This document shows positions 1-27,792 of a stretch of DNA of 64,000 nucleotides, one piece after another (the stretch's first letter is position 1; each line of letters starts with the position of its first letter). The stretch is from an uncultured Acidimicrobiaceae bacterium (GTDB lineage: Bacteria; Actinomycetota; Acidimicrobiia; Spongiisociales; UBA5794). A model generated the notes under the pieces. The model saw only the letters and a list, made by a program, of their open reading frames with translations, ran no database searches and was not told the DNA's origin. Made by a program: the position numbers and the translations under genes. The stretch lies in assembly GCA_964397045.1 (NCBI GenBank), contig CAYNHF010000049.1:1027-65026 (forward strand), read 5' to 3'.

Positions 1-1935
1 ACCGCGGCCCTGGCGATACCGGGGGTGGTAGCCGCCTACACGGCCGCGGACCTCCCGGGCGAACTCCGGGTGGGGATTATCCACACCGACTGGCCGGTCT
101 TCATCCCGGTTGGAGGCAGAACCTCGTACACCGGTGACGTGATCGCCATCGTCGTGGCAGAAGACGTCCAGACGGCCAGGGCCGCAGCAGATGCGATCAC
201 CGTCGAGTACAACGTCCTGGCACCGTTCACCGACCCGGCAGTCGCGGTCGCCGCCGCCGAGGACGCGGTCTGGGGACTCGATGGCAACGTCCTGTCGGTT
301 TCCAAATATGCCCGGGGCGATGTCGACGCGGCGCTGTCCACCTCGGCCCACACGGTGCACGAGGTCTTTTCGACACAACGTGTCGAACATGCCTTTCTCG
401 AACCCGAGTCAACCCTTGCCGTACCTGATCCCGACGGTCCGCTCCTCGTGTACTCGGGCGGGCAGGGCGTGTGGGACGACCGCAATCAGATTGCATCCGC
501 GCTCGGTCTGGAGACCGAAAAGGTCGTGGTCGAACTGGTATCGAACGGGGGTGCGTTCGGGGGTAAGGAAGACATGTCGAACCAGGCGCAAACGGCGCTG
601 GCCGCGCACCTTCTCGGAGTCCCCGTGAAGTGCACCTTGACTCGCGAGCAATCACTGCACATGCATCCGAAGCGACACCCGGTCCGGGTGGAGGTGTGGG
701 CCGGCTGTGACGAGGCGGGCAAGCTGAGCGCGTTGCGGGCCAGGATGCTTGGCGATTCTGGCCCGTATGCCTCCGTCGGCATGAAGGTCCTCGAACGAGC
801 AGCCGGCCATGCCAGCGGGCCCTATCTGTTCCCCAACGTCGATGTCGAGTCGGTCGCGGCTCGCACCAACAACTCCGTGTGCGGAGCCTTTCGCGGATTC
901 GGTGCCAACCAGGCCCAGTTCGCGACCGAAGGGGTGCTCGACCGGCTGGCGGATGCCGTCGGGATCTCAGGCTGGGAGATGCGGTCGCGCAACGTGGTCG
1001 AGCCGGGAGCGGTGTGGGGCCCTGGCCAAATCATGGATTCAGGAAGCGCCGGTGCCAGGCAGTGCCTGGACGCGGTCAAGCCCGCCTACGACGCGGCGCG
1101 GCGCGAAGGCAAGGCCGTCGGCCTGGGCCTGGGCCTGAAGAACTCGGGGCTCGGCAACGGCTTCGTCGAGGTGGCCCGAGCCGTCGTGCGGTTCGACGAG
1201 GACGGCACGATCGAGGTGCGCCACTGCTGGACGGAGATGGGCCAAGGTATTCACACCGTGGCCCGCCAGGTGGCGGTCGAGGAACTCGGCGTCGACCCGG
1301 AGCGGGTCAAGGTGATCGTGGATACCACCCGAGAATTCGGTGCGGGCCAGACCACCGGAAGCCGCGGCACCTTGATGGGATCCGGGGCGGTCAAGGACGC
1401 ATGCCGGGTGGCCAGGGAGAACGGCTTGGCGCCGGGCGTCGATCATGTCGGCGAATACCGGGTCGACTGGACCAATTCACTCGAAGAAGGGGTGGAGAAC
1501 CCGATTATCCACTCCGCCTTCGGCTACGCGGCGCAGTTGGTGATCGCAGACAAGGCCACCGGGTCGATCGAGCGGGTTGTCGCCGCCCACGACGTGGGAA
1601 AGGCGATGAATCCGCTGTTGTGCGAGGGCCAGATTGAAGGTGCGGTTCACATGGGTCTCGGTTACGCCCTGAGCGAGGACTTTCCGTGTGATGAGGAGGG
1701 GCGACCGGTCAACCTGACGCTGCGCTCGCTCGGAATCATCCGGCCGAAGGATGTACCGCAGGTGGAAGTGATCCTGGTGGAGGTGCCGCAGCCCGACGCT
1801 CCTTACGGGGTGAAGGGGGTCGGCGAGATCGGGCTCGTCCCGACTGCGGGTGCGGTCGCCGCCGCCTTCCGGGAGGTAGACGGGAAATGGCGGAGGGACC
1901 TTCCGCTGCTGGCACACGAGCCCCTGGAAGTGTGA
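1..1935 (+). CDS. Xanthine dehydrogenase / aldehyde oxidase family molybdopterin-binding subunit, 5'-truncated by the window edge
   Basis: The reading frame is open from base 1. The translation matches the middle and C-terminal parts of Mo-hydroxylase large subunits (a/b-hammerhead region AAYTAADLPG...DVIAIVVAED, then the MoCo-binding domains). It is paralogous to the complete 745-aa subunit at 6863..9100, and about 100 N-terminal residues are missing. Confidence 0.85.
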   Translation, partial: TAALAIPGVVAAYTAADLPGELRVGIIHTDWPVFIPVGGRTSYTGDVIAIVVAEDVQTARAAADAITVEYNVLAPFTDPAVAVAAAEDAVWGLDGNVLSVSKYARGDVDAALSTSAHTVHEVFSTQRVEHAFLEPESTLAVPDPDGPLLVYSGGQGVWDDRNQIASALGLETEKVVVELVSNGGAFGGKEDMSNQAQTALAAHLLGVPVKCTLTREQSLHMHPKRHPVRVEVWAGCDEAGKLSALRARMLGDSGPYASVGMKVLERAAGHASGPYLFPNVDVESVAARTNNSVCGAFRGFGANQAQFATEGVLDRLADAVGISGWEMRSRNVVEPGAVWGPGQIMDSGSAGARQCLDAVKPAYDAARREGKAVGLGLGLKNSGLGNGFVEVARAVVRFDEDGTIEVRHCWTEMGQGIHTVARQVAVEELGVDPERVKVIVDTTREFGAGQTTGSRGTLMGSGAVKDACRVARENGLAPGVDHVGEYRVDWTNSLEEGVENPIIHSAFGYAAQLVIADKATGSIERVVAAHDVGKAMNPLLCEGQIEGAVHMGLGYALSEDFPCDEEGRPVNLTLRSLGIIRPKDVPQVEVILVEVPQPDAPYGVKGVGEIGLVPTAGAVAAAFREVDGKWRRDLPLLAHEPLEV

Positions 1936-1942: not shown

Positions 1943-2965
1943 ATGACGTCGGTCACTCCCGGTCTGGTCTGTGCCCACCATCACCTCTACTCGGTGCTGG
2001 CACGCGGCATGCCTGCGCCGCCGAGGACCCCGCAGAACTTCCTCGAGATTCTGGAGCAGATCTGGTGGCGCCTCGATCGAGCGCTCGACCTCGACATGCT
2101 CTACTGGTCGGCGAAGCTGGGTGCGCTCGAAGCACTCGAGTCCGGCACTACGGCCATCATCGACCACAACGAGACGCCCAATGCCATCGAGGGGAGCCTC
2201 GACGTCATTGCCAGGGCTTGTGCCGAGGTCGGCGTACGAGTGGTGTGCGCCTACGGTGTGAGCGACCGCAACGGGGCGGAAGGTGCGCAGCGAGGGCTCG
2301 AGGAGAACCAGCGCTTCCTCTCCGCAGGCGGGCGTGGTCTCGTCGGGATCCACGCTGCGTTCACGTGCTCAGACGACTTGCTGGCCGCCGCCTCGGAACT
2401 GGCGCGCGGTCAGGGTGTCGGCGTCCATATCCATGTTGCAGAGGGGATCGAAGACATCGATGCCCCTGCTCGGTTGGAAGGCCTCACCGAAGCGAGCTGG
2501 CTGCTGGCGCATTGTGTCCACCTGCCCACGGAGAACGCGCTTACGGGCACGATCCTCCACAACCCCCGGTCGAATCTGAACAACGCGGTCGGGTACGCCG
2601 CTCCGGCTCGTTTCGCTCAGCCGGTGGCGCTGGGAACAGATGGCATCGGGGCCAATGTGCTCGAGTCCATGCGTCTTGCCTACGCCATGGCCCGCTCGGT
2701 TGATGTCACCTCGACCCCGGATGAGGCTTGGGAATGGCTGGAGGAAGGCTGGAATCTCGTGCCGGAGGCGCGCGACGACCGGGTGACCTGGTCGTACGAA
2801 CCGATGGATCCTTGGTACGTGGCTTTCACTCCGGGAATCCGTCCGCTCGAGGTGGTGGTCGACGGAGAGACCGTCCTCGACGAAGGGGTGGCAACGAAGG
2901 TCGAGGCTTTGGAGATACGCGCCAAAGCCGCAGAGCAGGCAAAGCGATTGCACGCGAAGTTGTGA
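1943..2965 (+). CDS. ssnA: SsnA-like cyclic amidohydrolase (chlorohydrolase/aminohydrolase superfamily), lacking the usual N-terminal beta-sandwich
   Basis: The HxH metal motif sits at residues 11-13 (VCAHHHLYSVLARG). There is a long colinear match to E. coli SsnA as I recall it (WWRLDRAL, IIDHNETP, EENQRF, HNPRSNLNN, LGTDG). A GAGGA RBS lies upstream of the ATG at 1943, and the stop of the upstream gene is 8 nt before it. Confidence 0.6.
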   Translation: MTSVTPGLVCAHHHLYSVLARGMPAPPRTPQNFLEILEQIWWRLDRALDLDMLYWSAKLGALEALESGTTAIIDHNETPNAIEGSLDVIARACAEVGVRVVCAYGVSDRNGAEGAQRGLEENQRFLSAGGRGLVGIHAAFTCSDDLLAAASELARGQGVGVHIHVAEGIEDIDAPARLEGLTEASWLLAHCVHLPTENALTGTILHNPRSNLNNAVGYAAPARFAQPVALGTDGIGANVLESMRLAYAMARSVDVTSTPDEAWEWLEEGWNLVPEARDDRVTWSYEPMDPWYVAFTPGIRPLEVVVDGETVLDEGVATKVEALEIRAKAAEQAKRLHAKL

Positions 2966-2981: not shown

Positions 2982-4802
2982 ATGTCCAATGTGAGCACCA
3001 CCGAGCTCAGGCCTCCGGAAGCGGCACCACTCACGCCGTATCCGCTCGACGTCCTTCTCGGCCGCATCGTCGAAGAATGGGAGACCAGGCAGCGCATCTT
3101 CGATCTCCTGAAGGCGCGCATCTACAAGGCAGGCACCGGGCCCGATCTGTCCATCGACTTCATGGGTCGCAAGGCGGCCACCCCGCTCGGCCCCGCCGCC
3201 GGGCCCCACAGCCAGTTGGCGGAGAACATCGTGCTCGGGTGGCTCGCCGGAGCACGTCTGTTCGAGTTGAAGACGGTCCAGATTCTCGACGAGCTCGAGA
3301 TCGCACGGCCCTGCATCGACATGCAGACCATCGGCTACAACATCGAGTGGAGCCAGGAACTGAAGATCCCGCAGTCTCTCGAGGAATACGTGAAGGCCTG
3401 GATGATCATCGACATCATCAAGGACTGGGAGCCGGTGAAGCAGCTCGTGGGCGATACGCCGGGGCCGCACATCTTCGACATTTCCGTGGGGTACGACCTT
3501 GCAGGAATCTCCACCCCAGAGGTGGGGGGGTTCATCGACCGCATGATGGACGCCACTGCCGAGATCGATCGACTCCGGCCGTCGATCCCTGAGCCGTTCA
3601 CCGCGTACCGCGACTACGCGTTTGACCCGAGAGTTGCGAGCACGGCCACGCTGTCAACGTTCCACGGATGTCCACCAGACGAGATCGAGGCCATCACCAA
3701 ACACCTGATGACGCGCCACGGCCTAGACGTGATCGTGAAGCTGAACCCGACGCTGCTGGGTTACGAGAAGGTGGACGAAATCATTCACGACCGCCTCGGC
3801 TACGACTACGTGCGGCTGGTGCGCGACGCCTTCGACGAAGACCTGCAGTTCCCCAGGGCACTGGAGTTGATCGGCGAATTGGGCGACTTCGCAGCCGCGC
3901 AGGGGCGCCGCTTCGGTATCAAGCTGACCAACACGCTGGTGGTGGAGAACCACAAGGGTTTCATGCCTGAGGAACGTATGTATCTATCCGGTGCCCCACT
4001 CCACACGCTGGCGATCAGCATCCTCAACGAGCTGGTCACGGCGCTTCCCGGCACATTCGCCGTCGGGAGTGCGACGTCTGGTGCACAGGTGAGTTTTTCG
4101 GCAGGGGTGAGCAAGGACAACGTCACGGACGCGGTGGGACTCGGGCTGGCGCCGGTGACGGTGTGCTCCGACCTGCTCAAGCCCGGCGGCTACGGCCGAA
4201 TCGCTCCGATGCTCAAGGAGCTGGAGAAGACACTCAGCGCAGCCGACTGCAGCTCGGTCGCTGAGTGGAGGGCAAGCCGCCACGATGCCGCGGTCGCAGC
4301 CGGCTATCGCGATGCGATCGAGGCGCACACGGTGGCGATCACAGCTGCCGCCGCGGGCAATCCGTATGCCGCGATCGCCAATGCCAAGCTGCCGCGAGAG
4401 GTGGATCACACGCTCGAGATGTGGGGCTGCGTGGCCTGCAACTTCTGTGTGACGGTGTGCCCCAACAACGCGGTCCTCAAGCTGAAGACTCCGGAGGACA
4501 TGGAGCAACTGGAAGACCGCTGGCAGTACTTCATTCTGGCCGAGTTGTGCAACGAGTGCGGCAACTGCATGGTGTTCTGTCCCGAGGTCGGCGACCCGGC
4601 GAAGATCAAGCCCCGTCTGTTCATCGACGACGATCGGTTCGCGCTCGAATCGGCGCAAGCACAGGCGTTTCTCATAACAGAAGGCGGCGCCGGTGCCTTC
4701 ACAGTGACCCCGACGGAAGCAACGGATAGCGAGGCAGAGACGCTCGCAACGATCCTCAATTCTGCGGAAGGTCTGCCGCTGGCGAAGGCGTCGCCGGGGT
4801 GA
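2982..4802 (+). CDS. DHOD/PreA-like TIM-barrel flavoprotein with C-terminal 2x[4Fe-4S] ferredoxin domain (YgfK N-terminal-like), plus a ~100-aa C-terminal extension
   Basis: The N-terminal region resembles the class-1 dihydroorotate / dihydropyrimidine dehydrogenase fold (TPLGPAAGPHSQLAENIVLGWLAGARLFELKTVQ). It carries two CxxCxxCxxxCP clusters (CVACNFCVTVCP, CNECGNCMVFCP). A strong RBS GAGGAGGG precedes the ATG at 2982. Confidence 0.5.
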   Translation: MSNVSTTELRPPEAAPLTPYPLDVLLGRIVEEWETRQRIFDLLKARIYKAGTGPDLSIDFMGRKAATPLGPAAGPHSQLAENIVLGWLAGARLFELKTVQILDELEIARPCIDMQTIGYNIEWSQELKIPQSLEEYVKAWMIIDIIKDWEPVKQLVGDTPGPHIFDISVGYDLAGISTPEVGGFIDRMMDATAEIDRLRPSIPEPFTAYRDYAFDPRVASTATLSTFHGCPPDEIEAITKHLMTRHGLDVIVKLNPTLLGYEKVDEIIHDRLGYDYVRLVRDAFDEDLQFPRALELIGELGDFAAAQGRRFGIKLTNTLVVENHKGFMPEERMYLSGAPLHTLAISILNELVTALPGTFAVGSATSGAQVSFSAGVSKDNVTDAVGLGLAPVTVCSDLLKPGGYGRIAPMLKELEKTLSAADCSSVAEWRASRHDAAVAAGYRDAIEAHTVAITAAAAGNPYAAIANAKLPREVDHTLEMWGCVACNFCVTVCPNNAVLKLKTPEDMEQLEDRWQYFILAELCNECGNCMVFCPEVGDPAKIKPRLFIDDDRFALESAQAQAFLITEGGAGAFTVTPTEATDSEAETLATILNSAEGLPLAKASPG

Positions 4803-5398
4803 GCGGGAGACGTCTTCCGCTGCGCACCGAACTCGTCCTGCCGGACTGGTTCGCCGACGTGGAGGTACCGGAGTCCAGCGACGGGGACGAGGCTCGAATG
4901 GCGTTTGTGGTCGACCTGGCGCGGCGCAACGTTGAGCACGGCACCGGCGGCCCTTTCAGCTCTGCAGTGTTCTCTCTCGAAGAGGGAGCACTGGTGTCGG
5001 TTGGAGTCAACCTCGTCGAGCCGAGCCTGGCTGCGATCGCGCACGCCGAGATCGTCGCGATCGCACTCGCGGGCCGAGCGCTCGGATCTTTCGACTGCGG
5101 AGCGCGCGGGCCAACCGAACTCGTCGCGTCGACCGAGCCGTGTGCGATGTGCCTCGGCGCTGTCCCGTGGTCCGGGGTGGAGCGACTGGTGTGCGGGGCC
5201 AGCGATGCGGATGCGCGGGCGGTTGGGTTCGACGAGGGCAACAAGCCGGCAGGCTGGGAGCGGCTGCTGGAGAAGCAAGGAATCGAGGTCGTGACCGGGG
5301 TGCTGCGAGACTTGTCGGTGTCGGTGCTCACCGACTACGCCGCGGGCGGAGGCACGATCTACAACAGCGGTACGGCGGAAGGGGTGCGCGGTGCATGA
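4799..5398 (+). CDS. CDA-fold zinc deaminase, guanine deaminase (GuaD)-like
   Basis: HAE...PCxxC zinc-binding signature (AHAEIVAIALAG ... TEPCAMCLGAVPWSG) with a colinear match to B. subtilis GuaD. The GTG start overlaps the upstream stop (GTGA); an alternative ATG at 4895 is possible. Confidence 0.7.
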   Translation: MSGRRLPLRTELVLPDWFADVEVPESSDGDEARMAFVVDLARRNVEHGTGGPFSSAVFSLEEGALVSVGVNLVEPSLAAIAHAEIVAIALAGRALGSFDCGARGPTELVASTEPCAMCLGAVPWSGVERLVCGASDADARAVGFDEGNKPAGWERLLEKQGIEVVTGVLRDLSVSVLTDYAAGGGTIYNSGTAEGVRGA

Positions 5399-6866
5399 GG
5401 TTCAGGTAGCGGGAGTCGGGGTGGCGGAGCACGCCACCGTCGCCTCTGTGGATGAGGCGCTGCAACTTCTCGCCGAATCCGGGGAAGCGGCGCGCCTGGT
5501 TGCCGGCGGCACCGATCTCCTGCTCGAACTTGCCCGCAACGTTCGCCCCGGTATCACCAGACTCATCGATATCAGCCGGGTTCCCGGGCTCGCCAGTATC
5601 GGAGTCGACGCAGACAGAACCGTGCACGTCGGCCCCCTGGTGACGCACAACGACGCGGTCGCCTCGCCCCTGCTGCGAGAAAGCGCGCTGCCGCTGGCGC
5701 AGGCGTGCTGGGAGGTGGGGTCGCCGCAGTTGCGCAACCGGGCCACCATCGCCGGAAACCTCGTGACCGCCAGTCCTGCCAACGACACCATCTCGGCTTT
5801 GCGAGCCCTCGGTGCCGACGTCACACTGCAGTCGGTGCGGGGGGAGCGCACGGTGGCACTGCGAGATTTCTACACCGGGGTGCGCCGGACAGTGATGCAG
5901 CAGGACGAGATGCTGGTAGACATCTCGTTTCCTGCGATGACGCCTGCGCAGCGGGGCATTTTCGTCAAGCTTGGGCTGCGGCGGGCCCAGGCGATCTCGG
6001 TGGTTCACCTCGCGATCGTCGGCGAGTTCGAAGGGGCCAAGGTGACGAAAGCTACGATCGCGCTCGGCAGCGTGGCTCCGACCATCGTCACCGCAGACGC
6101 CGCAGCCGACATGCTGGTCGGCTCCGAACTCGATGAGACGACGATCGAACGAGCCGCAGCCGCGGCCGGTGCGCTACCTACTCCAATCGACGATCTGCGG
6201 GCAACCGCCGAGTATCGGGCTGAGTTGATACCCACCATGGTCACCCGGGGGCTGCGAGCACTACGAGACGGGACCGAGGCAGCCCACCTGCCTGCGACTC
6301 CGGCGCGATTGGCGCCGCACCCGGTAGCCGCCACGGCGACGTCCGCACGGCATGGTCAGACAGAGCCGGTGGTGGCCACGGTGAACGGACTCACCATCGA
6401 GGCACCGGGAGCCGCCGGGGTGACGCTCCTCGACTGGCTCCGAGACGTGGCGGCACCTGAGGCGGCGGCTTCGCTGTATGGCACCAAGGAAGGTTGTGCC
6501 GAGGGTGAATGCGGTGCTTGCACCGTGGTGCTCGACGGCGCCGCGGTGATGGCGTGCCTGGTGCCTGCCGCCCGCGCCCATCGCGCCGAAGTCATCACCA
6601 TCGAGGGGCTGCGAGACCCATCCGATCCGGACCGGTTGCACCCACTTCAGCAGGCGTTCGTAGATCAGGGTGCTGTGCAATGTGGCTTCTGCATTCCCGG
6701 CTTCCTGATGTCGGGTGCGATGCTGCTCGACGAGTTTCCGGAGCCCACTGCGGACCAGGTGCGTCAGGGTTTTGCGGGCAACCTGTGTCGCTGCACCGGC
6801 TACTACAAGATGTTCACCGCGGTCGACCAGGCAGCCCGTGACCTCGCGGCGGGGGGGCGGTCATGA
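5391..6866 (+). CDS. Fused molybdenum-hydroxylase FAD-binding subunit (CoxM/XdhB-like) and [2Fe-2S] subunit (CoxS/XdhC-like)
   Basis: The N-terminal ~290 aa is a CO-dehydrogenase flavoprotein-type domain (LVAGGTDLLLEL, AGNLVTASPANDT). The C-terminal part has plant-type and second 2Fe-2S motifs (CAEGECGACTVVLDG, CGFCIPGF, CRCTGY). The GTG start overlaps the upstream stop, and its own stop overlaps the next ATG (ATGA). Confidence 0.85.
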   Translation: MHEVQVAGVGVAEHATVASVDEALQLLAESGEAARLVAGGTDLLLELARNVRPGITRLIDISRVPGLASIGVDADRTVHVGPLVTHNDAVASPLLRESALPLAQACWEVGSPQLRNRATIAGNLVTASPANDTISALRALGADVTLQSVRGERTVALRDFYTGVRRTVMQQDEMLVDISFPAMTPAQRGIFVKLGLRRAQAISVVHLAIVGEFEGAKVTKATIALGSVAPTIVTADAAADMLVGSELDETTIERAAAAAGALPTPIDDLRATAEYRAELIPTMVTRGLRALRDGTEAAHLPATPARLAPHPVAATATSARHGQTEPVVATVNGLTIEAPGAAGVTLLDWLRDVAAPEAAASLYGTKEGCAEGECGACTVVLDGAAVMACLVPAARAHRAEVITIEGLRDPSDPDRLHPLQQAFVDQGAVQCGFCIPGFLMSGAMLLDEFPEPTADQVRQGFAGNLCRCTGYYKMFTAVDQAARDLAAGGRS

Positions 6867-9100
6867 CGGTTGGTGCTTCCTCGACCCGCATCGACGCCCC
6901 GGGAAAGGTCACCGGAGCCACGCGGTATCCCGCCGACCTGGCTCACGACGGCCTGCATGCTCAGGTCGTCTTCACCGACCAGCCGCATGCCCGGATGCTG
7001 AGTATGGATCTCACCGCGGCACGGGCGGTGCCCGGGGTTGTTGAAATCTTCACCGCGGCCGACGTGCCGGTGAACGAGTACGGGCTGACCATGTTCGATC
7101 AGCCCGTCTTCGTAGGGGTCGGCGCAACCGGCCGCAGCGAGGTTCCCTCCGACGTGAGCAGGTGGGAGGCGGATCACGTCGCCCTCGTCGTTGCGGAGAC
7201 ACCTGCCGCTGCCAACAAGGCAGCCGGTGCGATTGCGATCGAATGGGAGCCGTTGCGCCTTGTTGCCGACCTGGATGCGGCACTGAATGGCTCGACCCTG
7301 GTGCACCCTGAAAACGGCATTGGATCCAACATCTATGTGCACCAGAGGATCCGGAAGGGTGACGTCGCCGCGGCCTGGGAGCGAGCCGAGGTGATCATCG
7401 AAGGCACCTACGAGCTGCCCCATCAAGAGCATGCCTACCTGCAACCGGAAGCCGCCGTCAGCTACGTCGATGAACAGGGGCGGGTGACGGTCGAGATTGC
7501 CGGTCAATGGACCCACGAGGACCAGGAACAGATCGCCCACGCCCTCGATCTACCCGCGGAACAGGTCCGAGTGATCTACCCGGCGATCGGCGGCGCGTTC
7601 GGTGGTCGCGAGGACATGACGCTGCAGATCGTGATGGCACTGGCCTCATGGCGGCTCGCGGAGCGTGGCGAGCTGCGCCCGATCCGCACCACTTGGTCGC
7701 GCGAGGAGAGCATCGTCGGACATCACAAGCGACACCGTGGTCGGATCCACACCCGGTGGGGAGCGACCCGGGAGGGTGAACTGATCGTCGTCGAGGCGGA
7801 CGCGTATCTCGACGCCGGTGCCTACAACTACACCACGAACAAGGTGCTCGGCAATCTCCACCTCAGCGTTGCGGGCCCCTACCGGGTGCCGAATGCGCGT
7901 ATTGACAGCATGGGGGTCTACACCACCTCCGTCCCCGGTGGCGCGTTCCGGGGGTTCGGTGCGCCGCAGGGGGCGTTTGCTGCCGAGAGCCAGATGAACA
8001 AGCTGGCCGCTGAGCTCCAAATGGACCCGGTCGAGCTCCGCCTGAAGAACGCGCTGCGCGAGGGGAGCATCGGGATCACGATGGTGGAGATGCCCGCGGG
8101 CGTGAGTCTTCCTACGGTCATCGAGGAGTGCGCCGTAGCGTCGAGCTGGTCGACGCCACGGGAGCCGGTTCCAACGTTTCGCCCCTTTCAATCGCTTCCC
8201 GCGGAGCCCGGTGCGATTCGGATCGGCAGGGGGTTTGCGTGCTCCTACAAGAATGTCGGCTTCTCGTTCGGTTTCCCGGAGAACTCCACGGCACGGATCG
8301 AACTCGAGGGGGACACGGCCATCGAACTGGTGCGCCTCTTCTATGCCGGGGCAGACGTCGGTCAGGGTGGCCACACTGCATGGATCCAGATGGCCGCGGA
8401 AGCGACCGGAGTCGACCCGGAGCTGGTCCAGGCAGAGTTCTCCGACACTGCGTCAGCGGACAACTCGGGCTCGGCTTCGGCATCCCGGCTCACCTGGATG
8501 ACAGGCAACGCGATCCTCGGGGCCGCCGAAGAAGCAGGCAAAGCGTGGGTCGATGGTGACCGCCCCGCGATCGGCGACTTCAAGTTCGTCCCGCCTCCAA
8601 CCCAGGCACTCGACCCAGACACCGGGTTCGGCCAGCCGAACTTCGCGTACGGATACGTGGCAGAGGCAGTCGAGGTCGCGGTCGACATCGAAACCGGGCA
8701 CGTCGAGGTCCGCGATGTCACCTGCGCGGTCGACGTCGGGAAGGCGATCAACCCGAACCTGGTCGAGGGCCAGATCGAGGGAGCCGTGGTCCAGGCCCAC
8801 GGGTACGCCGTCACCGAGAACCTCCAGGTTGCCGAGGGACGAGTCCTGAATCCGCGACTGTCGACGTATCTCATCCCGGGAATCATGGACATTCCGGTCC
8901 GGGTGCACAGTGTGATCGTGGAGGAGCCAGACCCGCGGGGTCCGTGGGGAGCCAGGGGCATGGCCGAGATGCCGTTCATACCGTTCGCACCCGCCGTGGT
9001 CGCCGCGCTCTACGACGCGACCGGTGTCTGGTTCCACGGGTTCCCGCTAACGCCCCCACGAGTCAGGGCTGCCTTGGTCGCGGCAGGCGTCACCGGCTGA
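6863..9100 (+). CDS. Xanthine dehydrogenase family molybdopterin-binding subunit (complete, 745 aa)
   Basis: Full-length Mo-hydroxylase large-subunit architecture (N-terminal a/b hammerhead, GGAFGGRED-type MoCo motifs, C-terminal dimerisation domain). It is translationally coupled to the FAD/Fe-S gene. Confidence 0.9.
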   Translation: MTVGASSTRIDAPGKVTGATRYPADLAHDGLHAQVVFTDQPHARMLSMDLTAARAVPGVVEIFTAADVPVNEYGLTMFDQPVFVGVGATGRSEVPSDVSRWEADHVALVVAETPAAANKAAGAIAIEWEPLRLVADLDAALNGSTLVHPENGIGSNIYVHQRIRKGDVAAAWERAEVIIEGTYELPHQEHAYLQPEAAVSYVDEQGRVTVEIAGQWTHEDQEQIAHALDLPAEQVRVIYPAIGGAFGGREDMTLQIVMALASWRLAERGELRPIRTTWSREESIVGHHKRHRGRIHTRWGATREGELIVVEADAYLDAGAYNYTTNKVLGNLHLSVAGPYRVPNARIDSMGVYTTSVPGGAFRGFGAPQGAFAAESQMNKLAAELQMDPVELRLKNALREGSIGITMVEMPAGVSLPTVIEECAVASSWSTPREPVPTFRPFQSLPAEPGAIRIGRGFACSYKNVGFSFGFPENSTARIELEGDTAIELVRLFYAGADVGQGGHTAWIQMAAEATGVDPELVQAEFSDTASADNSGSASASRLTWMTGNAILGAAEEAGKAWVDGDRPAIGDFKFVPPPTQALDPDTGFGQPNFAYGYVAEAVEVAVDIETGHVEVRDVTCAVDVGKAINPNLVEGQIEGAVVQAHGYAVTENLQVAEGRVLNPRLSTYLIPGIMDIPVRVHSVIVEEPDPRGPWGARGMAEMPFIPFAPAVVAALYDATGVWFHGFPLTPPRVRAALVAAGVTG

Positions 9101-9147
9101 CGGTTGGCCCCTATCTGCCGTGGTCGCCGGCATGCCAGGATGGACCC

Positions 9148-9951
9148 ATGGGCAACCCGGAACAGAGTCGAGCCCGGACGAATCGAGCTCGCGGCATCTC
9201 GGTACGGCCGTTTCCCGCCCGCCGCAAGGCGGTGCTTCAGGCGATGCGGGTGGGCAGGCGCATGGCGCCGATGCATGGACTACTCGACGTTGATGTGACG
9301 CGTGCCGTGCGGCGGGTGTCCGATGCAGAAGAACCTGCCAGCTTCACGGCGTTCATCGTGGCGGCGGTGGCTCGCGCTGCGGCAGAGCACCCCGAGGTCC
9401 ACGCCTACCGGGACTACCGCGGCCGGCTGGTGACACACGGCCATGTCGATGTGACGACGATGATCGAAGTGCCTACGGTCGACGGCGCGTTTCCGCTCGG
9501 CCACGTCATCCGTGACGCGGATGTGAGGTCGGTTGCCGACATCACACGCGAGCTGCGAGGTGTCCAGGCAGATCCGGCTTCGAGTCCGAGCGGGTACCTG
9601 CTTCAGCGCGTCGGCGGCGTGGCATCGCGGGTCCCCTTCTTCTTCGGCGCCTTCTATCGCGTCGCGGCTCGGTCGCGTCGTATCCGCGCCTCGATCGGTA
9701 CCGTTGCAGTGACTTCGGTGGGCATGTTCGGGGGTGGTAGTGGCTTTGGGATCGGTGTCCCTACGGTGATGACACTCACTGTTCTGGTTGGGGGGCGCAG
9801 CCGGAGGCCCAGGGCCGTCGGGGACGTAGTGGAATTGCGCGACGTCTTGGATCTCACCATCACCATCGATCACAACGTCGTAGACGGCGCTCCGGCGGCC
9901 CGGTTTGGCGCCGAGTTGCGGCGAAGACTCGAGACGGCAGACCTTCCCTAG
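9148..9951 (+). CDS. Stand-alone 2-oxoacid dehydrogenase E2-type acyltransferase catalytic domain protein (no lipoyl or E3-binding domains)
   Basis: Carries the catalytic-domain signature DHNVVDGAPAARF (DHRxxDG(A)xAARF) plus upstream conserved blocks (MHGLLDVDVT, VPTVMTLTVL). I chose the ATG at 9148 inside the longer 8944 ORF because the sequence upstream of it overlaps the Mo-subunit gene. Confidence 0.65.
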   Translation: MGNPEQSRARTNRARGISVRPFPARRKAVLQAMRVGRRMAPMHGLLDVDVTRAVRRVSDAEEPASFTAFIVAAVARAAAEHPEVHAYRDYRGRLVTHGHVDVTTMIEVPTVDGAFPLGHVIRDADVRSVADITRELRGVQADPASSPSGYLLQRVGGVASRVPFFFGAFYRVAARSRRIRASIGTVAVTSVGMFGGGSGFGIGVPTVMTLTVLVGGRSRRPRAVGDVVELRDVLDLTITIDHNVVDGAPAARFGAELRRRLETADLP

Positions 9952-10118
9952 TGAATCGTTGCCCGAGGGGGGTGGCCCAGCGCGATCGGCCCTTCGGATT
10001 TCCTGCCAGAATGGGATCTCCCGGCGTTCACGGCCTCTCTGCGGTCGCGCCGGATCTTGTCACGGGCGCCCGGGCCCCTCCCGGGATCGGACTGTTGGAA
10101 TGTTCGGAGGAACACACA

Positions 10119-11068
10119 TGAGGAGCTTCGCAGGCAGAGACATCTTGTCACTGAAGGATATGGAACGAGCCGAGTTCTTCCACATCTTCGATGTCGCTGC
10201 CGAACTCGAACCAATCGCACGAGAGCGACGCAACGTCGATCTCCTTGCAGACAAGACGCTGGTCACCGCCTTCTATCAGCCATCGACCCGAACCCGGTTG
10301 GCTCATGAGGCCGCCATGCATCGCCTCGGCGGCGCCGTCCTCGGGTTCTCAGACGCCAAGATGACCAGGGCAGGCGACTTCTACCAGGAGTCGATCAAAG
10401 ACACCGTCCACATGCTCGAGTATTACGGCGACGTCATGGTCATGCGCCACTTCCAGCAGGGGGCGCCCCAGGAAGCCGCCCGCTGGGCGAGCATCCCGGT
10501 GATCAATGCCGGCGACGGCTGGGGTGAGCACCCGACCCAGGTGTTGACCGACCTGTACACCATCTTGCAGGAGAAGGGCACCATCGACGGCTTGAAGATC
10601 GTGTGCATCGGGGACATGCGGATGCGCACCATGCATTCCATCGGCTACGCCCTGAGCCAGTTCGACGCCGAGGCGATCTTCATCGCCCCGCCTGAGATGA
10701 ACCTCACCGATGAATTCAAAGAGGAACTCGTTGCCAAGGACACCAACTTCCGCGAGGCGGAGCACATCATGGACGTGATCGGCGAGGCGGACGTCGTCTA
10801 CATGGAGCCCGTGGTGCAGCCCGACTACACGAAGCCGCGCGATGAGAGAACCGGCGATATCGGACTCACCCCGGACAACTACAAGGTGACCCGCGAAGTC
10901 ATGAAGAGCGCCAAGAGCGACGCCATCGTGCTCCATTCCTTGCCCCGCATGGATGAGCTGCTCATGGACGTAGACGAGACCCGCCACGCCCGCTATTGGG
11001 AAGAGGCGTTCTACGGCGTCGTCATGCGCATGGCGCTGCTGTCGCTGGTGCTCGGCGCCGCCGAGTGA
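10119..11068 (+). CDS. Aspartate carbamoyltransferase (PyrB)-like transcarbamylase, ~316 aa
   Basis: STRTR, HPTQ and HSLPR motifs, and colinear similarity to E. coli PyrB along the whole length (PSTRTRLAHEAAMHRLGGAVLGFSD; INAGDGWGEHPTQVLTDLYTI; VLHSLPRMDEL). GGAGGA RBS 6 nt upstream of the ATG at 10119. It is not in a pyr-operon context. Confidence 0.75.
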
Positions 11069-11132
11069 GCCGAGTGAGCCGGGCGGCGAGCTGCCGCACC
11101 CCGACCATCTGGTATTGAGAGAGGAAATAGAC

Positions 11133-12107
11133 GTGCAAACAGGCTTGCGTGGTCGTGACATGATCACGACCCAGGAATGGACCAAGAACGAACTCGATAC
11201 CGTGCTGGACGTGGCGCTCGATCTCAAGCGCCGCAGGGCGCTCGGCGAGCTCCATCCGCTGCTGCGGGACAAGGTGCTTGCCATGTTGTTCTTCTTCTCC
11301 TCGACCCGCACCCGTGCCAGCTTCGAGGCCGGGGTGGCTCAGCTCGGGGGGCACGCCCAGTTCATCGAGTCGAAGAGCACCCAGATCTCCCACGGCGACA
11401 CCGCGAAGGAGATCGGCGACATCCTCGGCCGGTACAACGACGGCATTGCCATCCGGCAGGTCGACTGGGGAGTGGGCAACGGCTACATCCGCGACGTGGC
11501 TGCGGCCTCCCGCACCCCGGTGTTGAACATGCAGTGTGACTGGTACCACCCGTTCCAGGCGTTGGCTGATCTGCTCACGATCATCGAGTACAAGGGCGAC
11601 CCGCGGGGCCTCACGATCGACGTCAGCTGGGCCTACGCCGACAGCTATCAGAAGCCGTTGAGTGTTCCCCAGAGCCTCATCACGCTGATGACCCGCTACG
11701 GGATGAACGTGCGGCTGACCCGGCCGCCCGAGTTCAAGCTCATGCCGGAGGTGATGGCCCAAGCGGAGGCCAATGCCGCAGCTGCAGGCGGCTCCTTCGA
11801 GGTCGTCGAAGACTTCGATGCCGGGTTCCGGGATGCAGACGTGGTGTACGCCAAGAGCTGGGGCGCCATGCTCACGACGACAGATGACGAGGATTCGGCG
11901 CAGATCGGGGCGCAGTACACCGACTGGATCACAGACGAGCGGCGCATGGCGCTGGCTAAGCCGGACTCGATGTATATGCACCCGCTGCCTGCCGATCGCA
12001 ACATCGAGGTGACGGACGCGGTGATCGACGGACCCAATAGCGCCGTCTTCGATGAGGCGGAGAATCGGCTCCATGTACAGAAGGCGGTAATGGCGCTCAC
12101 CATGTGA
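11133..12107 (+). CDS. ygeW: YgeW-like transcarbamylase (knotted ATC/OTC-superfamily carbamoyltransferase of purine-ureide catabolic clusters)
   Basis: SSTRTRASFE, NMQCDWYHPFQ, WAYADSYQKPLSVPQSLITLMTRYGMNV and MHPLPADRN blocks match my memory of E. coli YgeW. The start is uncertain: TTG at 11115, GTG at 11133 (preceded by a GAGAGGAAA RBS) or ATG at 11160. Confidence 0.65.
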   Translation: MQTGLRGRDMITTQEWTKNELDTVLDVALDLKRRRALGELHPLLRDKVLAMLFFFSSTRTRASFEAGVAQLGGHAQFIESKSTQISHGDTAKEIGDILGRYNDGIAIRQVDWGVGNGYIRDVAAASRTPVLNMQCDWYHPFQALADLLTIIEYKGDPRGLTIDVSWAYADSYQKPLSVPQSLITLMTRYGMNVRLTRPPEFKLMPEVMAQAEANAAAAGGSFEVVEDFDAGFRDADVVYAKSWGAMLTTTDDEDSAQIGAQYTDWITDERRMALAKPDSMYMHPLPADRNIEVTDAVIDGPNSAVFDEAENRLHVQKAVMALTM

Positions 12108-12185
12108 GCGCTCCGCAGGCAACGGGACGGGGCAGTACAGCTCCGGCGGCGTGCGTACAACCGAGCAGCAAGTCTGGAGGACAGC

Positions 12186-13127
12186 GTGGCACGAAGAGCA
12201 GTAGTTGCGATCGGGGGAAACTCCCTGATCAGAGATGCAAGTCGGCAGAGTGTCGAGGATCAGTACCTCGCGGCTGCGGAGACCGATCACCACATCGCGG
12301 CGCTTATCCGCGAGGGGTGGGAGATCTGTATTACCCACGGGAACGGGCCTCAGGTTGGTTTCATCATGCGCCGCTCCGAGCTAGCGGCCCATGAGCTCCA
12401 CGAGGTGCCGCTCGAGGTATGCGTCGCAGACACCCAGGGAGCCATCGGCTACGCCCTGCAGCAGACGCTGGGGCATGACTTGAGCCGGCTCGGTATCGAA
12501 AAGGGGGTCGTGACCGTCGTCACGCAGGTCGAGGTCGACGAAAACGATCCTGCGTTCGCCAAACCGGGCAAGCCGATTGGGTCATTTCTCGACGAGGACA
12601 CTGCTGCACAACGGACCCTGGAGAACGGCTGGACCTGCATCGAAGACGCAGGGCGAGGCTGGCGTCGTGTCGTCGCCTCGCCGGCCCCGGTACGCGTGGT
12701 AGAGGCAGGCGCCATCAAGTTCCTGATGGACTCCGGATTCGTGGTGATTGCGGCAGGTGGCGGGGGGATTCCCGTGGCTGAGCGAGACGGTGATCTCGTG
12801 GGAGTGGCCGCGGTGATCGACAAGGACCTGGCGTCTGCTCTGCTCGCAGGCGATATCGGGGCGGACACGTTCCTCATTACGACGGCGGTCGAGCAGGTGG
12901 CGCTGAACTGGGGAACTCCAGAGCAGGAGTGGGTGAGCCACATGACACTCGACGAGGTCAAGGGATATCTCGCGGAGGGCGGCCACTTCGCAGAAGGGTC
13001 GATGGCGCCGAAGATGCGTGCGGTCGTACAGTTCCTCGAACAGGGCGGCCGCGAGGCCATCATCACCGATCCCGACAACATGCAACGCGCCATGGCAGGC
13101 GAGACCGGTACCCGGATCACTGCGTAG
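12186..13127 (+). CDS. arcC: Carbamate kinase
   Basis: Starts VVAIGGNSL and carries the HGNGPQVG motif of the amino-acid kinase fold of carbamate kinases. GTG start with GGAGGA RBS. Confidence 0.85.
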   Translation: MARRAVVAIGGNSLIRDASRQSVEDQYLAAAETDHHIAALIREGWEICITHGNGPQVGFIMRRSELAAHELHEVPLEVCVADTQGAIGYALQQTLGHDLSRLGIEKGVVTVVTQVEVDENDPAFAKPGKPIGSFLDEDTAAQRTLENGWTCIEDAGRGWRRVVASPAPVRVVEAGAIKFLMDSGFVVIAAGGGGIPVAERDGDLVGVAAVIDKDLASALLAGDIGADTFLITTAVEQVALNWGTPEQEWVSHMTLDEVKGYLAEGGHFAEGSMAPKMRAVVQFLEQGGREAIITDPDNMQRAMAGETGTRITA

Positions 13128-13306
13128 CTGCGCGGTCTGGCGACCGCACTTGCCCACATCTGCGCCGGCCGATGCAGGTGCCCGGAAAGGCGAAACCGCC
13201 TGATACCACTGCCGTTCGCCATGACCGCCTCCTCAAGCCTCCAGACACGAACGTCGATAGAGAGGTGACGGGTACCGAATCTGGTAGGCGAAGCGAGGTT
13301 GCTTGG

Positions 13307-18071: not shown

Positions 18072-18172
18072 GCCCACGGCCGGCGCGATGACCCAGTCGA
18101 TGCCAGATCGGAGGACGAGAAGGCATCGGATCGAGCTGAATCCGACCCGGTTGCCCCGACTAACCTCGCGGC

Positions 18173-18565
18173 ATGCCACGCCGGGTCCTCATCGCCAAAC
18201 CAGGCCTCGATGGCCACGACCGCGGGGCCAAGGTCGTGGCCAGAGCGCTGCGAGACTCCGGCTGCGAGGTCATCTACTCGGGACTGCATCAAACTCCTGA
18301 GCAAATCGTCGAAACCGCGCTCCAGGAAGACGTGTCCGGGGTTGGGCTCTCGGTGTTGTCCGGCGCTCACATGACCCTGTTTCCCCGCGTCGTCGAATTA
18401 CTGCGCGAGCGAGGTGCAGAGGACGTCGTGGTGTTCGGGGGCGGCATCATCCCCGACGACGACATTCCACTGCTGGAAGCGGCAGGCCTCGCTGCCGTCT
18501 TCACCCCCGGTACGCCACTCTCCGAGATCTCGGACTGGGTCGACAACAACCTGGACGAATACTGA
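18173..18565 (+). CDS. Cobalamin (B12)-binding domain protein, methylmalonyl-CoA mutase C-terminal-domain-like, stand-alone
   Basis: 130 aa. B12-binding Rossmann-like domain with the DxHxxG-type motif ([26 protein letters not shown]). No mutase large subunit is adjacent. Confidence 0.7.
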
Positions 18566-18634
18566 GCGAGATGGCGGCGCACACCCGAGGCAGACCGGGA
18601 GAAGCAATCGGTTTCCACGTGTCCGGAGGAGAAC

Positions 18635-20784: not shown

Positions 20785-20794
20785 GTACCACTCG

Positions 20795-21406: not shown

Positions 21407-21455
21407 GCGGTCGTGGATAGGCCGGGGACCCTCGTAGCATCTGGCTCGATCCACC

Positions 21456-22514: not shown

Positions 22515-22562
22515 ACCCACCAGATTCGGGCCCAAACTCGGCCGCCTAGTCTGACATCACCA

Positions 22563-25584: not shown

Positions 25585-25942
25585 CACCCATGGAGCCCTA
25601 CCGCGAAGCGCGGCGGTACCAGCGGGACTGGCCCCGGATCCCTATCCGAGGCCCCTCGCGTGGGTCCCGGTGGGTTCCGACAGCAGAGGTGAGCCCGCTC
25701 CAACCCGGCTCCGGCAGTGCTCCCTGCTCGTCTGTCACGATGAGCAGGCAACCGCGATCGAATTCATGAGTTCTGTCCCGCACGGCTCAGCGCGAGGCCG
25801 ACGGTTGGTCGAAACCGCCAACCACCCGCCTTCCGGGACGTGGCTATTCACAAATGGCTCTTAGGAACCACGGTTTCTGCTGCCGATCTCACTAGTGAAC
25901 ACGCGGCAATTGAGGGCCACGTTCGACCGCCAAGGAGCACTC

Positions 25943-27676: not shown

Positions 27677-27792
27677 CGTCTGAGCTCGAATCGGCTCCGA
27701 GTGGGATCGGTTCTCGCAAAAGGCGTCTCGCGGAGGCGAGCTAGCCTGACACTTCGACCGGATTCAACCAGCTACAGGCGCGCGACAGGGGA

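Follow-up and report, generated by a model that had tools for sequence, protein, structure and literature searches.

Introduction

Uric acid can be broken down by a reductive, oxygen-independent pathway in which YgfK dearomatises 2,8-dioxopurine (isoxanthine). The elucidation of this 2,8-dioxopurine route in gut anaerobes reportedly dates only from 2025, and the route attracts interest as a urate-lowering activity. The forms of the ring reductase described so far are the NAD(P)H-dependent YgfK, the sequence-unrelated UacX and a putative F420 enzyme.

[quoted passage not shown] FAD-less ring reductases have also been described. PydAc from C. chromiireducens uses reduced ferredoxin or methyl viologen as donor (PMC7332683). 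For UacX from C. difficile, the donor in the assay was methyl viologen and the proposed donor is ferredoxin (PMC12507026).

Here we describe a YgfK-related protein, called short YgfK below, encoded in a 64,000-nucleotide stretch of DNA (the window) from an uncultured Acidimicrobiaceae bacterium. It is an undescribed variant of the known enzyme YgfK.

Results

The short YgfK gene

The short YgfK gene occupies exactly 2982..4802 on the + strand and encodes a product of 606 aa; it was identified by TIGR03315, BLASTP, its homologues and an AF2 model. The gene has a strong ribosome binding site (RBS), with the Shine-Dalgarno sequence AGGAGG read from the sequence at 2970-2975 (+), six bases 5' of the ATG at 2982. 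Its stop codon overlaps the start of the next gene (GTGA at 4799-4802), and the operon is tightly packed. A database search gave 7972 homologues, and the best 120 of the 7972 were all 581 to 614 aa long. With a strong RBS and thousands of homologues of equal length, the ORF is genuine and not a chance ORF.

The score of the protein against TIGR03315 lies below the family cut-off (436.5 vs 835 bits), as it would for a truncated or decaying ygfK or for an assembly artefact. However, the missing segment is an internal one, the reading frame is kept across it, and the domains on either side are complete. The same-length homologues are spread over many phyla, the cluster cysteines and barrel signatures are all invariant, and the identical protein is present on three independent metagenome contigs. 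A truncated gene or pseudogene was rejected on these conservation data (homologue lengths, three identical copies, invariant cysteines), and we give it next to no chance.

Hosts of short YgfK include Acidimicrobiia, Comamonadaceae, Myxococcota, Elusimicrobiota, Acidobacteriota, Opitutales and other groups, with Acidimicrobiia and other environmental lineages making up the most part. Of the best 150 representative clusters of the YgfK family, about half are short forms, and the clade of long forms excludes most of the short ones.

Relation to YgfK and domain layout

The TIGR03315 model (Se_ygfK) matched short YgfK with an E value of 1.4e-130 and 436.5 bits, half of the curated cut-off of 835.3, which was not reached; profile positions 4-397 matched aa 17-419. 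In BLASTP, residues 17-415 aligned with E. coli YgfK 5-406 (39% identity, E 4e-94) and residues 483-582 with YgfK 898-1011 (31% identity, E 4e-14). YgfK 407-897 was unmatched, and the missing GltD/PreT-like FAD/NAD(P)H module comprises ~475 residues. Pfam gave no Pyr_redox or Fer4_20 match in short YgfK. The first-pass annotation had correctly seen that the GltD-like NAD(P)H/FAD module is absent, but it likened the protein to the N-terminal two-thirds of YgfK. Instead, short YgfK corresponds to YgfK ~1-410 joined to ~898-1011, with the middle module taken out. Seen from the other side, long YgfK resembles the short core into which a PreT-like module has been set, after the barrel and before the ferredoxin domain.

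A DHOD/DPD-like (beta/alpha)8 barrel spans aa ~17-420 (3030..4241, +) and holds the putative FMN and substrate site. The AF2 model of short YgfK had a pLDDT of 88.5 and a pTM of 0.91. The barrel has the DHOD/DPD-type fold, the catalytic-loop Cys and the putative Lys/Asn FMN-pyrimidine ligands. Its signature residues are K97, N120, S225-T226-x-H228-G229-C230, K253/N255, N317/T318, S336/G337 and G375, and Cys230 lies in the loop in which DPD and DHOD have their catalytic Cys. At 56 barrel positions, all signature residues included, conservation was at least 90% in both the 59 short and the 55 long representatives. Two positions only were class-specific (short vs long), namely D166/N and F227/M, and F227 is within the catalytic-loop motif.

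The barrel is followed by a helical linker, aa ~421-476 (4242..4409, +), which is a gap in the BLASTP alignment with YgfK and has helices at 426-439 and 445-453 in the model. The linker occupies the site of the GltD-like FAD/NAD(P)H module of long YgfK, and its length varies among short forms. A 2x[4Fe-4S] ferredoxin domain at 4410..4604 (+) was matched by Pfam Fer4_7 and related models and aligned with YgfK 898-953; PF12838 scored 28.8 bits at aa 483-534, above its gathering score. A motif scan found two full CxxCxxCxxxCP motifs, CVACNFCVTVCP at nt 4428-4463 and CNECGNCMVFCP at nt 4548-4583. All eight cluster Cys are invariant in 121 homologues. The C-terminal tail, aa ~542-606 (4605..4799, +), shares homology with the C terminus of YgfK, the alignment reaching residue 582 (YgfK 1011), and had a pLDDT of 90-95 in the AF2 model.

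Sequence models for PreA and related enzymes gave little. No Pfam model, PF01180 included, matched aa 1-473 at E≤10, and the PreA model NF006183, whose cut-off is 335 bits, gave a score of 17.6. A PDB sequence search with short YgfK matched ferredoxin domains only. In hhalign, the profile of the 121-sequence family gave a weak local match to single-sequence E. coli PreA (probability 14.7%). Because this match was weak, we relied on the fold and on the motifs, which are colinear with those of PreA. The barrel is recognised neither by Pfam nor by the PreA model, and this counts against the explanation preferred below.

The first-pass annotation described a YgfK/PreA-like protein with an FMN-type barrel and two [4Fe-4S] clusters. 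The YgfK alignments, the fold and motifs, PF12838 and the two Cys motifs bear this out. In the domain search that it proposed, the ferredoxin domain was recovered (PF12838) and the PF01180 barrel was not; likewise, in the proposed alignments E. coli YgfK matched in two blocks (39% and 31%), while the match to PreA stayed weak.

Gene neighbourhood in the window

The genes around short YgfK lie on the + strand. The 3' part of a gene for an XdhD-like Mo dehydrogenase (1..1935; Pfam MoCoBD_1/2 and Ald_Xan_dh_C) is cut by the window start, and the partial protein matched TIGR03311 (Se_dep_XDH) with E 6e-179. Its full 875-aa orthologue, in a 75%-identical orthologous locus (L004), scored 825 bits vs the cut-off of 830 and has an N-terminal Fer2_2. 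The XdhD-like protein is thus a fused 2x[2Fe-2S] and Mo-cofactor enzyme of about 875 aa without a FAD domain, and it keeps equivalents of XDH residues Glu802, Arg880 and Glu1261. Next is a short SsnA-like amidohydrolase of 340 aa (1943..2965), which may open the ring of the reduced purine by hydrolysis. It matched NF005540 (SsnA) at profile positions 57-340 of 444 (E 2.8e-74) and shares 36% identity with E. coli SsnA residues 54-352.

Downstream of short YgfK, a CDA-fold deaminase of 199 aa (4799..5398; PF00383, E 3.9e-12), probably a purine (guanine-type) deaminase, is the first gene of a deaminase and XDH module. It is followed by a fused XDH FAD and 2x[2Fe-2S] subunit of 491 aa (5391..6866; FAD_binding_5, CO_deh_flav_C, Fer2 and Fer2_2; TIGR02963, E 1.8e-86) and by its partner, an XDH molybdenum subunit of 745 aa (6863..9100; TIGR03196 pucD, E 3.3e-153). 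The Mo subunit gene starts at 6863, before the FAD/FeS gene has ended at 6866, and the two genes encode an ordinary two-subunit XDH.

Further downstream, NCBIfam models identified an ATCase-like carbamoyltransferase (9905..11068), an OTC/YgeW-like carbamoyltransferase (11115..12107; 36% identity to YgeW in tblastn) and a carbamate kinase (12186..13127; 49% identity to YqeA in tblastn). These genes (9905..13127) likely serve phosphorolysis of ureido groups, the ATP-yielding end of the pathway. In L012 the same trio directly precedes the XdhD-like gene, and in L006 it does so in part. HyuA, YgeX and YgeY were not found in the 64-kb window, so the pathway is incomplete as seen there, a point against the explanation preferred below.

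The window also has the aerobic TCA-type genes sdhAB, icd and sucCD, from which the host appears to be aerobic. The ferredoxin-dependent precedents come from strict anaerobes, and this difference counts against the explanation preferred below. SdhB gave the only other 4Fe-4S motif match in the window. A tblastn search with the YgfK middle segment, PreT and YgfT found no GltD/PreT-like sequence in the window at E≤1.

Conservation across 81 loci

We compared 81 loci carrying short YgfK. An XdhD-like gene was near it in 50 of the 81 and SsnA in 51. Any FAD module at all was found in 10 of the 81 loci, and in 6 of the 39 that had at least 5 kb on both sides. The partners of short YgfK that are conserved across phyla are the FAD-less Fe-S/Mo enzyme and SsnA. 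The deaminase, FAD/FeS and Mo genes occurred together in L004, L008, L011, L012, L014 and L015; the set lies adjacent to short YgfK in some loci, on the other strand in L011 and at a distance of 5 kb in L012 and L015. They form a separate module that relocates independently of YgfK.

GltD-like sequence was found in 3 of the 81 loci, each time inside a full-length YgfK paralogue. No stand-alone PreT/GltD-like gene was found within ±10 kb in the 81 loci at E≤1e-3, and none upstream of the matching operon in L004. Together with the search of the window, these results uphold the first-pass statement that short YgfK has no PreT/GltD-like partner nearby. An intact long YgfK lies beside the short one in L018 and L039, and partly in L020.

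A six-frame scan of all 81 loci showed no further ORFs with 4Fe-4S ferredoxin motifs within ±10 kb beyond the YgfK paralogues. The absence of a linked ferredoxin gene also speaks against the explanation preferred below. All ORFs of at least 70 aa in the 81 loci were clustered in search of a conserved redox partner. The clusters seen again in several loci comprised hydrolases of the pathway, PLP enzymes and ABC transporters. Rosetta-stone fusions that would name the donor were sought among the longer of the best 150 representatives. One (P0150) has a C-terminal DHDPS-family domain, and the others have longer linkers or tails only, with no extra Pfam domain.

Discussion

A proposed FAD-less purine-ring reductase

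With somewhat better than even confidence, we propose that short YgfK forms the catalytic core of a reductase for reductive purine degradation and receives electrons from an external donor by way of its two [4Fe-4S] clusters. The deaminase and the canonical XDH would funnel purines to urate, and the FAD-less XdhD-like Mo enzyme would take off the 6-oxo group to give 2,8-dioxopurine. Short YgfK would then reduce the ring at an FMN in its DHOD/DPD-like barrel; that 2,8-dioxopurine is the putative substrate is suggested by the 56 barrel positions common to long YgfK. SsnA would hydrolyse the product and so pull the unfavourable reduction forward, and the carbamoyltransferases and carbamate kinase would harvest the ureido groups.

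Because the central GltD-like module is missing, short YgfK cannot read NAD(P)H in the way of YgfK. Electrons would reach the FMN singly through the two [4Fe-4S] clusters, from a donor that is predicted to be external, being neither fused, nor a neighbouring PreT/GltD protein, nor conserved in the cluster. By analogy with PydAc, and with what has been proposed for UacX, a ferredoxin-type carrier is most likely this donor. Since long and short YgfK stand side by side in some loci (L018, L039 and partly L020), a one-for-one replacement of the long by the short form is doubtful, and the two may differ in substrate or role.

Other electron routes and roles

The first-pass annotation looked for the donor two genes downstream. 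It had the XDH FAD/[2Fe-2S] subunit (5391..6866) dock on short YgfK and donate electrons, in a hybrid of a Mo hydroxylase and a DHOD-like ring reductase. The tightly packed, translationally coupled operon, seen here and also in L004, L008 and L014, would suit such a hybrid, and in L049 and L082, where the FAD subunit of an E. coli-type XdhD offers the sole entry point for NAD(P)H in the cluster, a weaker form of the idea may hold. However, a FAD module accompanies short YgfK too seldom for consistent co-occurrence (10/81 loci; 6/39 with long flanks). The FAD/FeS gene overlaps the gene of its own Mo subunit, with which it makes a complete XDH, and the deaminase, FAD/FeS and Mo set also moves without YgfK (L011, L012, L015). 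The donor is thus probably not this subunit, and we regard the hybrid as very unlikely. The XdhD-like enzyme is found near short YgfK much more widely, in 50 of the 81 loci and across phyla, and neither of these two enzymes has a flavin/NAD(P)H entry module. They might form a direct complex with the chain Mo-[2Fe-2S]2-[4Fe-4S]2-FMN, either sharing one entry point or passing electrons between hydroxylation and ring reduction. Their genes are immediately adjacent in L018, L020, L047, L070, L083 and L085; in L018 and L039, short YgfK adjoins the XdhD-like gene while SsnA adjoins long YgfK, and no separate carrier gene is linked. Yet both steps consume electrons in the published pathway, so that a closed loop of the two enzymes would have no source. 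No fusion of both proteins occurs among the best 150 representatives, and a shared pathway explains the co-location equally well. Such a complex is therefore a minor possibility. A larger version of it would join the XdhD-like enzyme and short YgfK, plus the canonical XDH in loci that have one, into one iron-sulfur-wired assembly, in which hydroxylation electrons feed both reductions. Conversion of hypoxanthine or xanthine to urate would release electrons, and the steps from urate through 2,8-dioxopurine to the dihydro compound would take them up; starting from hypoxanthine, the count is exact, with 4 out and 4 in. If this were true, purine-ring breakdown would be internally redox-balanced and independent of O2 and pyridine nucleotides, and it would be explained why a reductive pathway described from anaerobes is widespread in environmental, probably aerobic phyla. 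We put forward this assembly as a speculation, and as a rather unlikely one.

Short YgfK could also be one half of a split YgfK, pairing with an unlinked PreT/GltD-like NAD(P)H-FAD-[4Fe-4S] subunit as PreA does with PreT. It has the architecture of PreA, a subunit that depends on PreT (preT-preA in E. coli), long YgfK looks like the short core plus an inserted PreT-like module, and GltD-like proteins are common in bacterial genomes. But the genes of obligate two-subunit enzymes usually adjoin each other, and the searches of the 81 loci (±10 kb, E≤1e-3) and of the 64-kb window (E≤1) gave no stand-alone gene of this kind, which makes the split form improbable. Alternatively, the substrate of short YgfK may be another purine or a pyrimidine rather than 2,8-dioxopurine, or the protein may have another role altogether, without being functionally equivalent to YgfK. 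This would agree with the presence of short and long forms in one locus (L018, L039), with the class-specific residues D166/N and F227/M, the latter inside the catalytic-loop motif, and with the position of most short forms outside the long-form clade. However, the 56 barrel positions common to both classes include all signature residues, and the SsnA and XdhD-type neighbours are the same as those of long YgfK; we consider another substrate or role unlikely.

Significance

Short YgfK would add a fourth form of ring reductase, one that is large and deeply diverse. The curated YgfK model TIGR03315 puts it under its cut-off. Judging from the methods of the published MAG survey, its 80%-coverage BLAST filter would probably miss short YgfK too. 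Environmental surveys of the reductive uric-acid pathway may therefore undercount it. The locus also raises the question of what reduces two FAD-less enzymes, the XdhD-like protein and short YgfK, in organisms that look aerobic.

Comparison with known enzymes

Short YgfK differs from PreA and from domains IV-V of pig DPD in several respects. There is no significant sequence-model match between them, and the barrel of short YgfK has large insertions (about 400 aa vs about 310 in PreA/DPD). PreA depends on PreT, whereas short YgfK has no adjacent PreT, and its genomic context is purine, not pyrimidine.

Like PydAc and UacX, short YgfK combines an FMN-type barrel, here a putative ring-reducing one, with Fe-S clusters and lacks a NAD(P)H/FAD module (PMC7332683; PMC12507026). 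UacX serves the same pathway step as YgfK and stands beside a FAD-less XdhD (PMC12507026). However, PydAc and UacX are PF01180 members from strict anaerobes, whereas short YgfK belongs to the YgfK lineage, has no PF01180 match and occurs for the most part in Acidimicrobiia and other environmental phyla; in the window, aerobic-type TCA genes accompany it.

The closest relative is YgfK/DOPOR of E. coli and C. sporogenes (TIGR03315/IPR017701). The barrel, the 2x[4Fe-4S] domain and the tail are homologous, the conserved barrel residues are the same, and both forms have SsnA and an XdhD-type Mo enzyme as neighbours. Both ferredoxin motifs of short YgfK are canonical, whereas long forms usually carry one non-canonical motif. 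The central module of long YgfK, with its N-terminal Fe-S pair, FAD and NAD(P)H site, is absent from short YgfK.

The short YgfK gene and its domains

The ORF at 2982..4802 (+) is a genuine gene. It starts with ATG and encodes 606 aa, in agreement with the coordinates of the first-pass annotation. A Shine-Dalgarno sequence (AGGAGG, 2970-2975) is located 6 bases upstream of the ATG, right behind the stop of the upstream gene, and the stop codon overlaps the start of the next gene in GTGA (4799-4802). The same kind of overlap was found downstream at 5391-5398 and 6863-6866, and these overlaps and the close packing indicate that six genes form one compact operon. G+C content is uniform over the whole window (62-68%), giving no sign of a foreign island. 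An identical protein occurs on three independent metagenome contigs. Among database proteins, 7972 homologues were found at E<=1e-5, the best 120 of which are all 581-614 aa long; where named, they are '4Fe-4S dicluster domain-containing protein [Acidimicrobiia]' at NCBI and 'putative selenate reductase' at JGI.

The NCBIfam model TIGR03315 ('putative selenate reductase subunit YgfK') matched the product with E 1.4e-130 and 436.5 bits, below the 835-bit cut-off (aa 17-419 against profile positions 4-397 of 1012), and the PreA model gave 17.6 bits against a cut-off of 335. Pfam covered the ferredoxin part only (Fer4_7, aa 483-534, 28.8 bits, above the gathering score, and related Fer4 models), with no match in the first 473 residues at E<=10. 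BLASTP against E. coli YgfK (1032 aa, from NC_000913.3) gave two blocks: residues 17-415 aligned with 5-406 (39% identity, E 4e-94) and residues 483-582 with 898-1011 (31% identity, E 4e-14). By this alignment the protein, here short YgfK, is YgfK minus the GltD-like Fe-S/FAD/NAD(P)H module that makes up ~475 central residues; a helical linker of ~55 residues is found in its place. The first-pass annotation had correctly stated that the NAD(P)H/FAD module is absent, the central ~475 residues of E. coli YgfK having no counterpart; its description of the protein as the N-terminal two-thirds of YgfK does not hold, since the two-block match shows that the middle is missing and not the C-terminus.

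An AlphaFold2 model built on a 121-sequence alignment had a mean pLDDT of 88.5 and a pTM of 0.91, and Foldseek returned family matches at E about 1e-10 to 1e-11. All seven barrel motifs compared were colinear with E. coli PreA: FKT (LK97T in short YgfK), IGFKN (IGYN120), NFSCP (STFHGC230P), AKMTPN (VK253LN255P), INT (TN317T), SG (S336G337) and ISGIGG (FSAG375). By analogy with textbook DHOD and DPD, we take these residues to be putative FMN/substrate ligands and Cys230 to be the putative catalytic acid. Two canonical CxxCxxCxxxCP motifs (nt 4428-4463 and 4548-4583) lie C-terminal to the barrel, and all 8 cluster Cys are invariant across the 121 sequences. Of the proposed PreA/DHOD-like barrel with a dicluster ferredoxin, Pfam confirmed the ferredoxin; the HMM search found no DHOD-like TIM barrel, formally the outcome that the first-pass annotation had named as refuting, and the barrel is visible only through fold and motifs. 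With these two corrections, on barrel detection and on the missing part, the original observation is essentially right.

Gene neighbourhood in the window

Upstream of short YgfK lies the 3' part of an XdhD-like gene (1..1935) encoding a fused 2x[2Fe-2S] and Mo enzyme of the 'selenium-dependent XDH' type, whose full 875-aa orthologue scored 825 bits with TIGR03311 (cut-off 830). The enzyme has neither a FAD domain nor a FAD subunit of its own and retains the XDH catalytic Glu/Arg/Glu. Between the two genes is an SsnA-like amidohydrolase (1943..2965, +) of 340 aa, compared with 442 aa in E. coli. Its match to the SsnA profile covers positions 57-340 of 444, so that ~55 residues are missing at the N-terminus and ~100 at the C-terminus. 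In amidohydrolases these residues normally form the small beta-sandwich domain. The 340-aa length is kept across the Acidimicrobiia loci.

Downstream follow a CDA-fold deaminase of 199 aa (4799..5398, +), a fused FAD and 2x[2Fe-2S] XDH subunit (5391..6866, +) and a pucD-like Mo subunit, the last two of which together make up a complete conventional XDH. No specific NCBIfam model matched the deaminase (TadA, 38 bits, below cut-off), which is possibly a Bacillus-type guanine deaminase. The FAD domain of the fused subunit precedes 2x[2Fe-2S], mirroring the E. coli xdhB-xdhC gene order and reversing the Fe-S then FAD order of the Rhodobacter-type small subunit. The deaminase always accompanies the FAD/FeS and Mo genes as a three-gene module. 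This trio adjoins short YgfK genes in L004 (the 75%-identical orthologous locus), L008 and L014, is on the opposite strand in L011, and lies 5 kb off, beyond an ABC transporter, in L012 and L015; it behaves as a separate module.

Two carbamoyltransferases (ATCase-like and OTC/YgeW-like) and a carbamate kinase with 49% identity to YqeA are encoded at 9905..13127 (+). The ATCase-like protein scored above the TIGR00670 cut-off. The same set occurs at L012:2416-5340, directly 5' of the XdhD-like gene, and in part at L006:1-1787. The paired carbamoyltransferases suggest that diureidopropionate might lose its two ureido groups through phosphorolysis, with a gain of 2 ATP, in which case the 'pyrB' label of 9905..11068 may be wrong. 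No HyuA, YgeX or YgeY homologues were found within the 64-kb window, and the hydantoinase and diaminopropionate lyase are missing from the pathway as seen there. The genes for the XDH Mo subunit and the ATCase-like protein flank an ORF at ~9130..9951 (+) that matched only the 2-oxoacid dehydrogenase E2 acyltransferase catalytic domain (PF00198, E 2.4e-20, two stretches), with neither a lipoyl nor a subunit-binding domain detected. Behind the carbamate kinase gene comes a large CheA-like histidine kinase that ends in a receiver domain (12929..15829, +). Because its longest ORF overlaps the carbamate kinase gene by ~200 nt, translation probably starts farther downstream.

The remaining window, as sampled (15888..37204), is ordinary chromosome with the housekeeping genes pcrA (15888..18071), sucC/sucD (18635..20784), purH (23192..24724) and icd (27793..29001), a histidine kinase (25895..27676), sdhB (32295..33062, −) and sdhA (33063..35660, −). 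The sdhA ORF is unusually long (865 aa, ~260 extra N-terminal residues) and its start may be over-extended. Judged solely from sdhAB, icd and sucCD, the host looks aerobic.

Short and long forms of YgfK

Searching 1.84 billion cluster representatives exhaustively gave 1766 relatives, with E<=1e-30 for 485. Among the best 150 of the 1766, about half are short forms: they lack the GltD-like middle, are mostly about 560-790 aa (fragmentary entries set aside), vary in their linker and usually carry two canonical Cys motifs. Long forms, mostly about 1000-1220 aa, make up about the other half. One short YgfK relative (P0150, 1046 aa) has a DHDPS-family (aldolase) domain at its C-terminus (aa 750-1028), possibly a true fusion, possibly two genes called as one.

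In a rough neighbour-joining tree of the barrel, built without bootstrap support, 54 of 55 long forms fell into a single clade with 7 short forms; 59 short forms lay outside, and the group of the window's protein was sister to the long clade. An ancestor PreA-like in architecture, with a PreT-like module inserted once, would fit this rough tree. The nested short forms (library matches P0207, P0233, P0241, P0270, P0169, P0173 and P0261) probably lost the module secondarily and independently, unless their genes were split in calling; most have a single canonical Cys motif, as is typical for long forms.

At 56 barrel positions, including all signature residues, conservation was at least 90% in both classes, and only two positions were class-specific (D166 vs N and F227 vs M), which argues that the chemistry, and probably the substrate, is common to both. 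Both forms are encoded in L018 and L039, two loci of Acidimicrobiia, and partly in L020: the short form adjoins the XdhD-like gene and YgeX, and on the opposite strand an intact long YgfK with its GltD-like module is located beside a 340-aa SsnA (L018:7100-10453, −; L039:3078-6431, −; partial counterpart L020:4121-4984, −). Such co-occurrence argues against simple equivalence, and the two forms are probably not redundant.

Proposed role and electron source

YgfK was characterised in 2025 as an NAD(P)H-dependent reductase dearomatising 2,8-dioxopurine (isoxanthine, 'yanthine'), the second intermediate when uric acid is broken down reductively (10.1101/2025.04.24.650524; PMC12507026). In this pathway XdhD-type Mo enzymes first strip urate of its 6-oxo group; YgfK carries out the ring reduction, which SsnA pulls forward through hydrolysis of the product. 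The modelled YgfK has two flavin sites, one with FMN for the substrate and one with FAD for NAD(P)H. The best-supported reading of short YgfK is the catalytic core of a 2,8-dioxopurine reductase in a variant reductive purine pathway, supplied by an external donor via the [4Fe-4S] pair. The likely order is that the deaminase and XDH would yield urate, the XdhD-like enzyme 2,8-dioxopurine, and short YgfK its reduced form, whose ring SsnA would open; the carbamoyltransferases, together with the carbamate kinase, would then recover the ureido groups.

We scanned one genome per GTDB species and compared the neighbours. Of 227 confirmed relatives, 80 were taken as loci, all with the short architecture; beyond Acidimicrobiia, hosts included Comamonadaceae, Myxococcota, Elusimicrobiota, Acidobacteriota, Gemmatimonadota, Rhodospirillales, Opitutales and other groups. 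With L004 this gave 81 loci, 39 having at least 5 kb on both sides of short YgfK. An XdhD-like Fe-S/Mo gene was near short YgfK in 50 of the 81 (29 of the 39) and SsnA in 51 (27 of the 39). ORF clustering recovered, as recurrent neighbours, CN-hydrolase, M20 carbamoylase, YgeX and other PLP enzymes, YgeW, YgeY, carbamate kinase and Bmp-type ABC transporters, that is, pathway enzymes and no recurrent redox carrier.

The first-pass annotation had proposed that the XDH FAD/[2Fe-2S] subunit feeds electrons to short YgfK in a hybrid with a molybdenum hydroxylase. As a general mechanism this is unlikely, because the subunit is absent from most loci (a FAD module of any Mo enzyme was near in 10 of 81, and 6 of 39) and has a Mo partner of its own; its co-transcription with short YgfK shows a shared pathway, not a complex. 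A weaker form, with a Mo-enzyme FAD subunit as donor, is conceivable in view of two loci (L049 and L082) in which short YgfK occurs with an E. coli-type XdhD and its FAD subunit, the sole NAD(P)H entry module there. An unlinked PreT-like subunit is a live alternative. A cut-off as loose as E<=1 still gave no PreT-, GltD-, YgfT- or YgfK-middle-like sequence in the 64 kb, bearing out the earlier claim that no such partner lies nearby, and GltD/PreT-like sequence was near short YgfK in 3 of 81 loci (0 of 39), each time as part of a full-length YgfK paralogue. Likewise live is direct wiring to the XdhD-like enzyme, which is co-conserved and also FAD-less: neither of these two conserved reductive enzymes has a flavin entry module, and no gene for a carrier is linked to them. 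The analogy with PydAc and UacX leads us to favour a ferredoxin-type carrier as the probable donor. Scanning for motifs turned up no further 4Fe-4S ferredoxin ORF in any of the 81 loci, and SdhB, beside SdhA, is the only other 4Fe-4S-motif ORF in the window.

Comparison with known FAD-less enzymes

In C. difficile, YgfK is replaced by UacX (PF01180, without a FAD domain), whose gene adjoins an XdhD also without a FAD subunit; UacX was assayed with methyl viologen, and ferredoxin is its proposed donor (10.1101/2025.04.24.650524; PMC12507026). A YgfK without the NAD(P)H module is not mentioned in the consulted passages of these two papers, and apart from them a full-text search on the pathway found only two reviews. 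Short YgfK is an apparently undescribed, widespread FAD-less variant of this recently characterised enzyme, a form for which PydAc, a ferredoxin-dependent dihydropyrimidine dehydrogenase, provides a precedent (PMC7332683).
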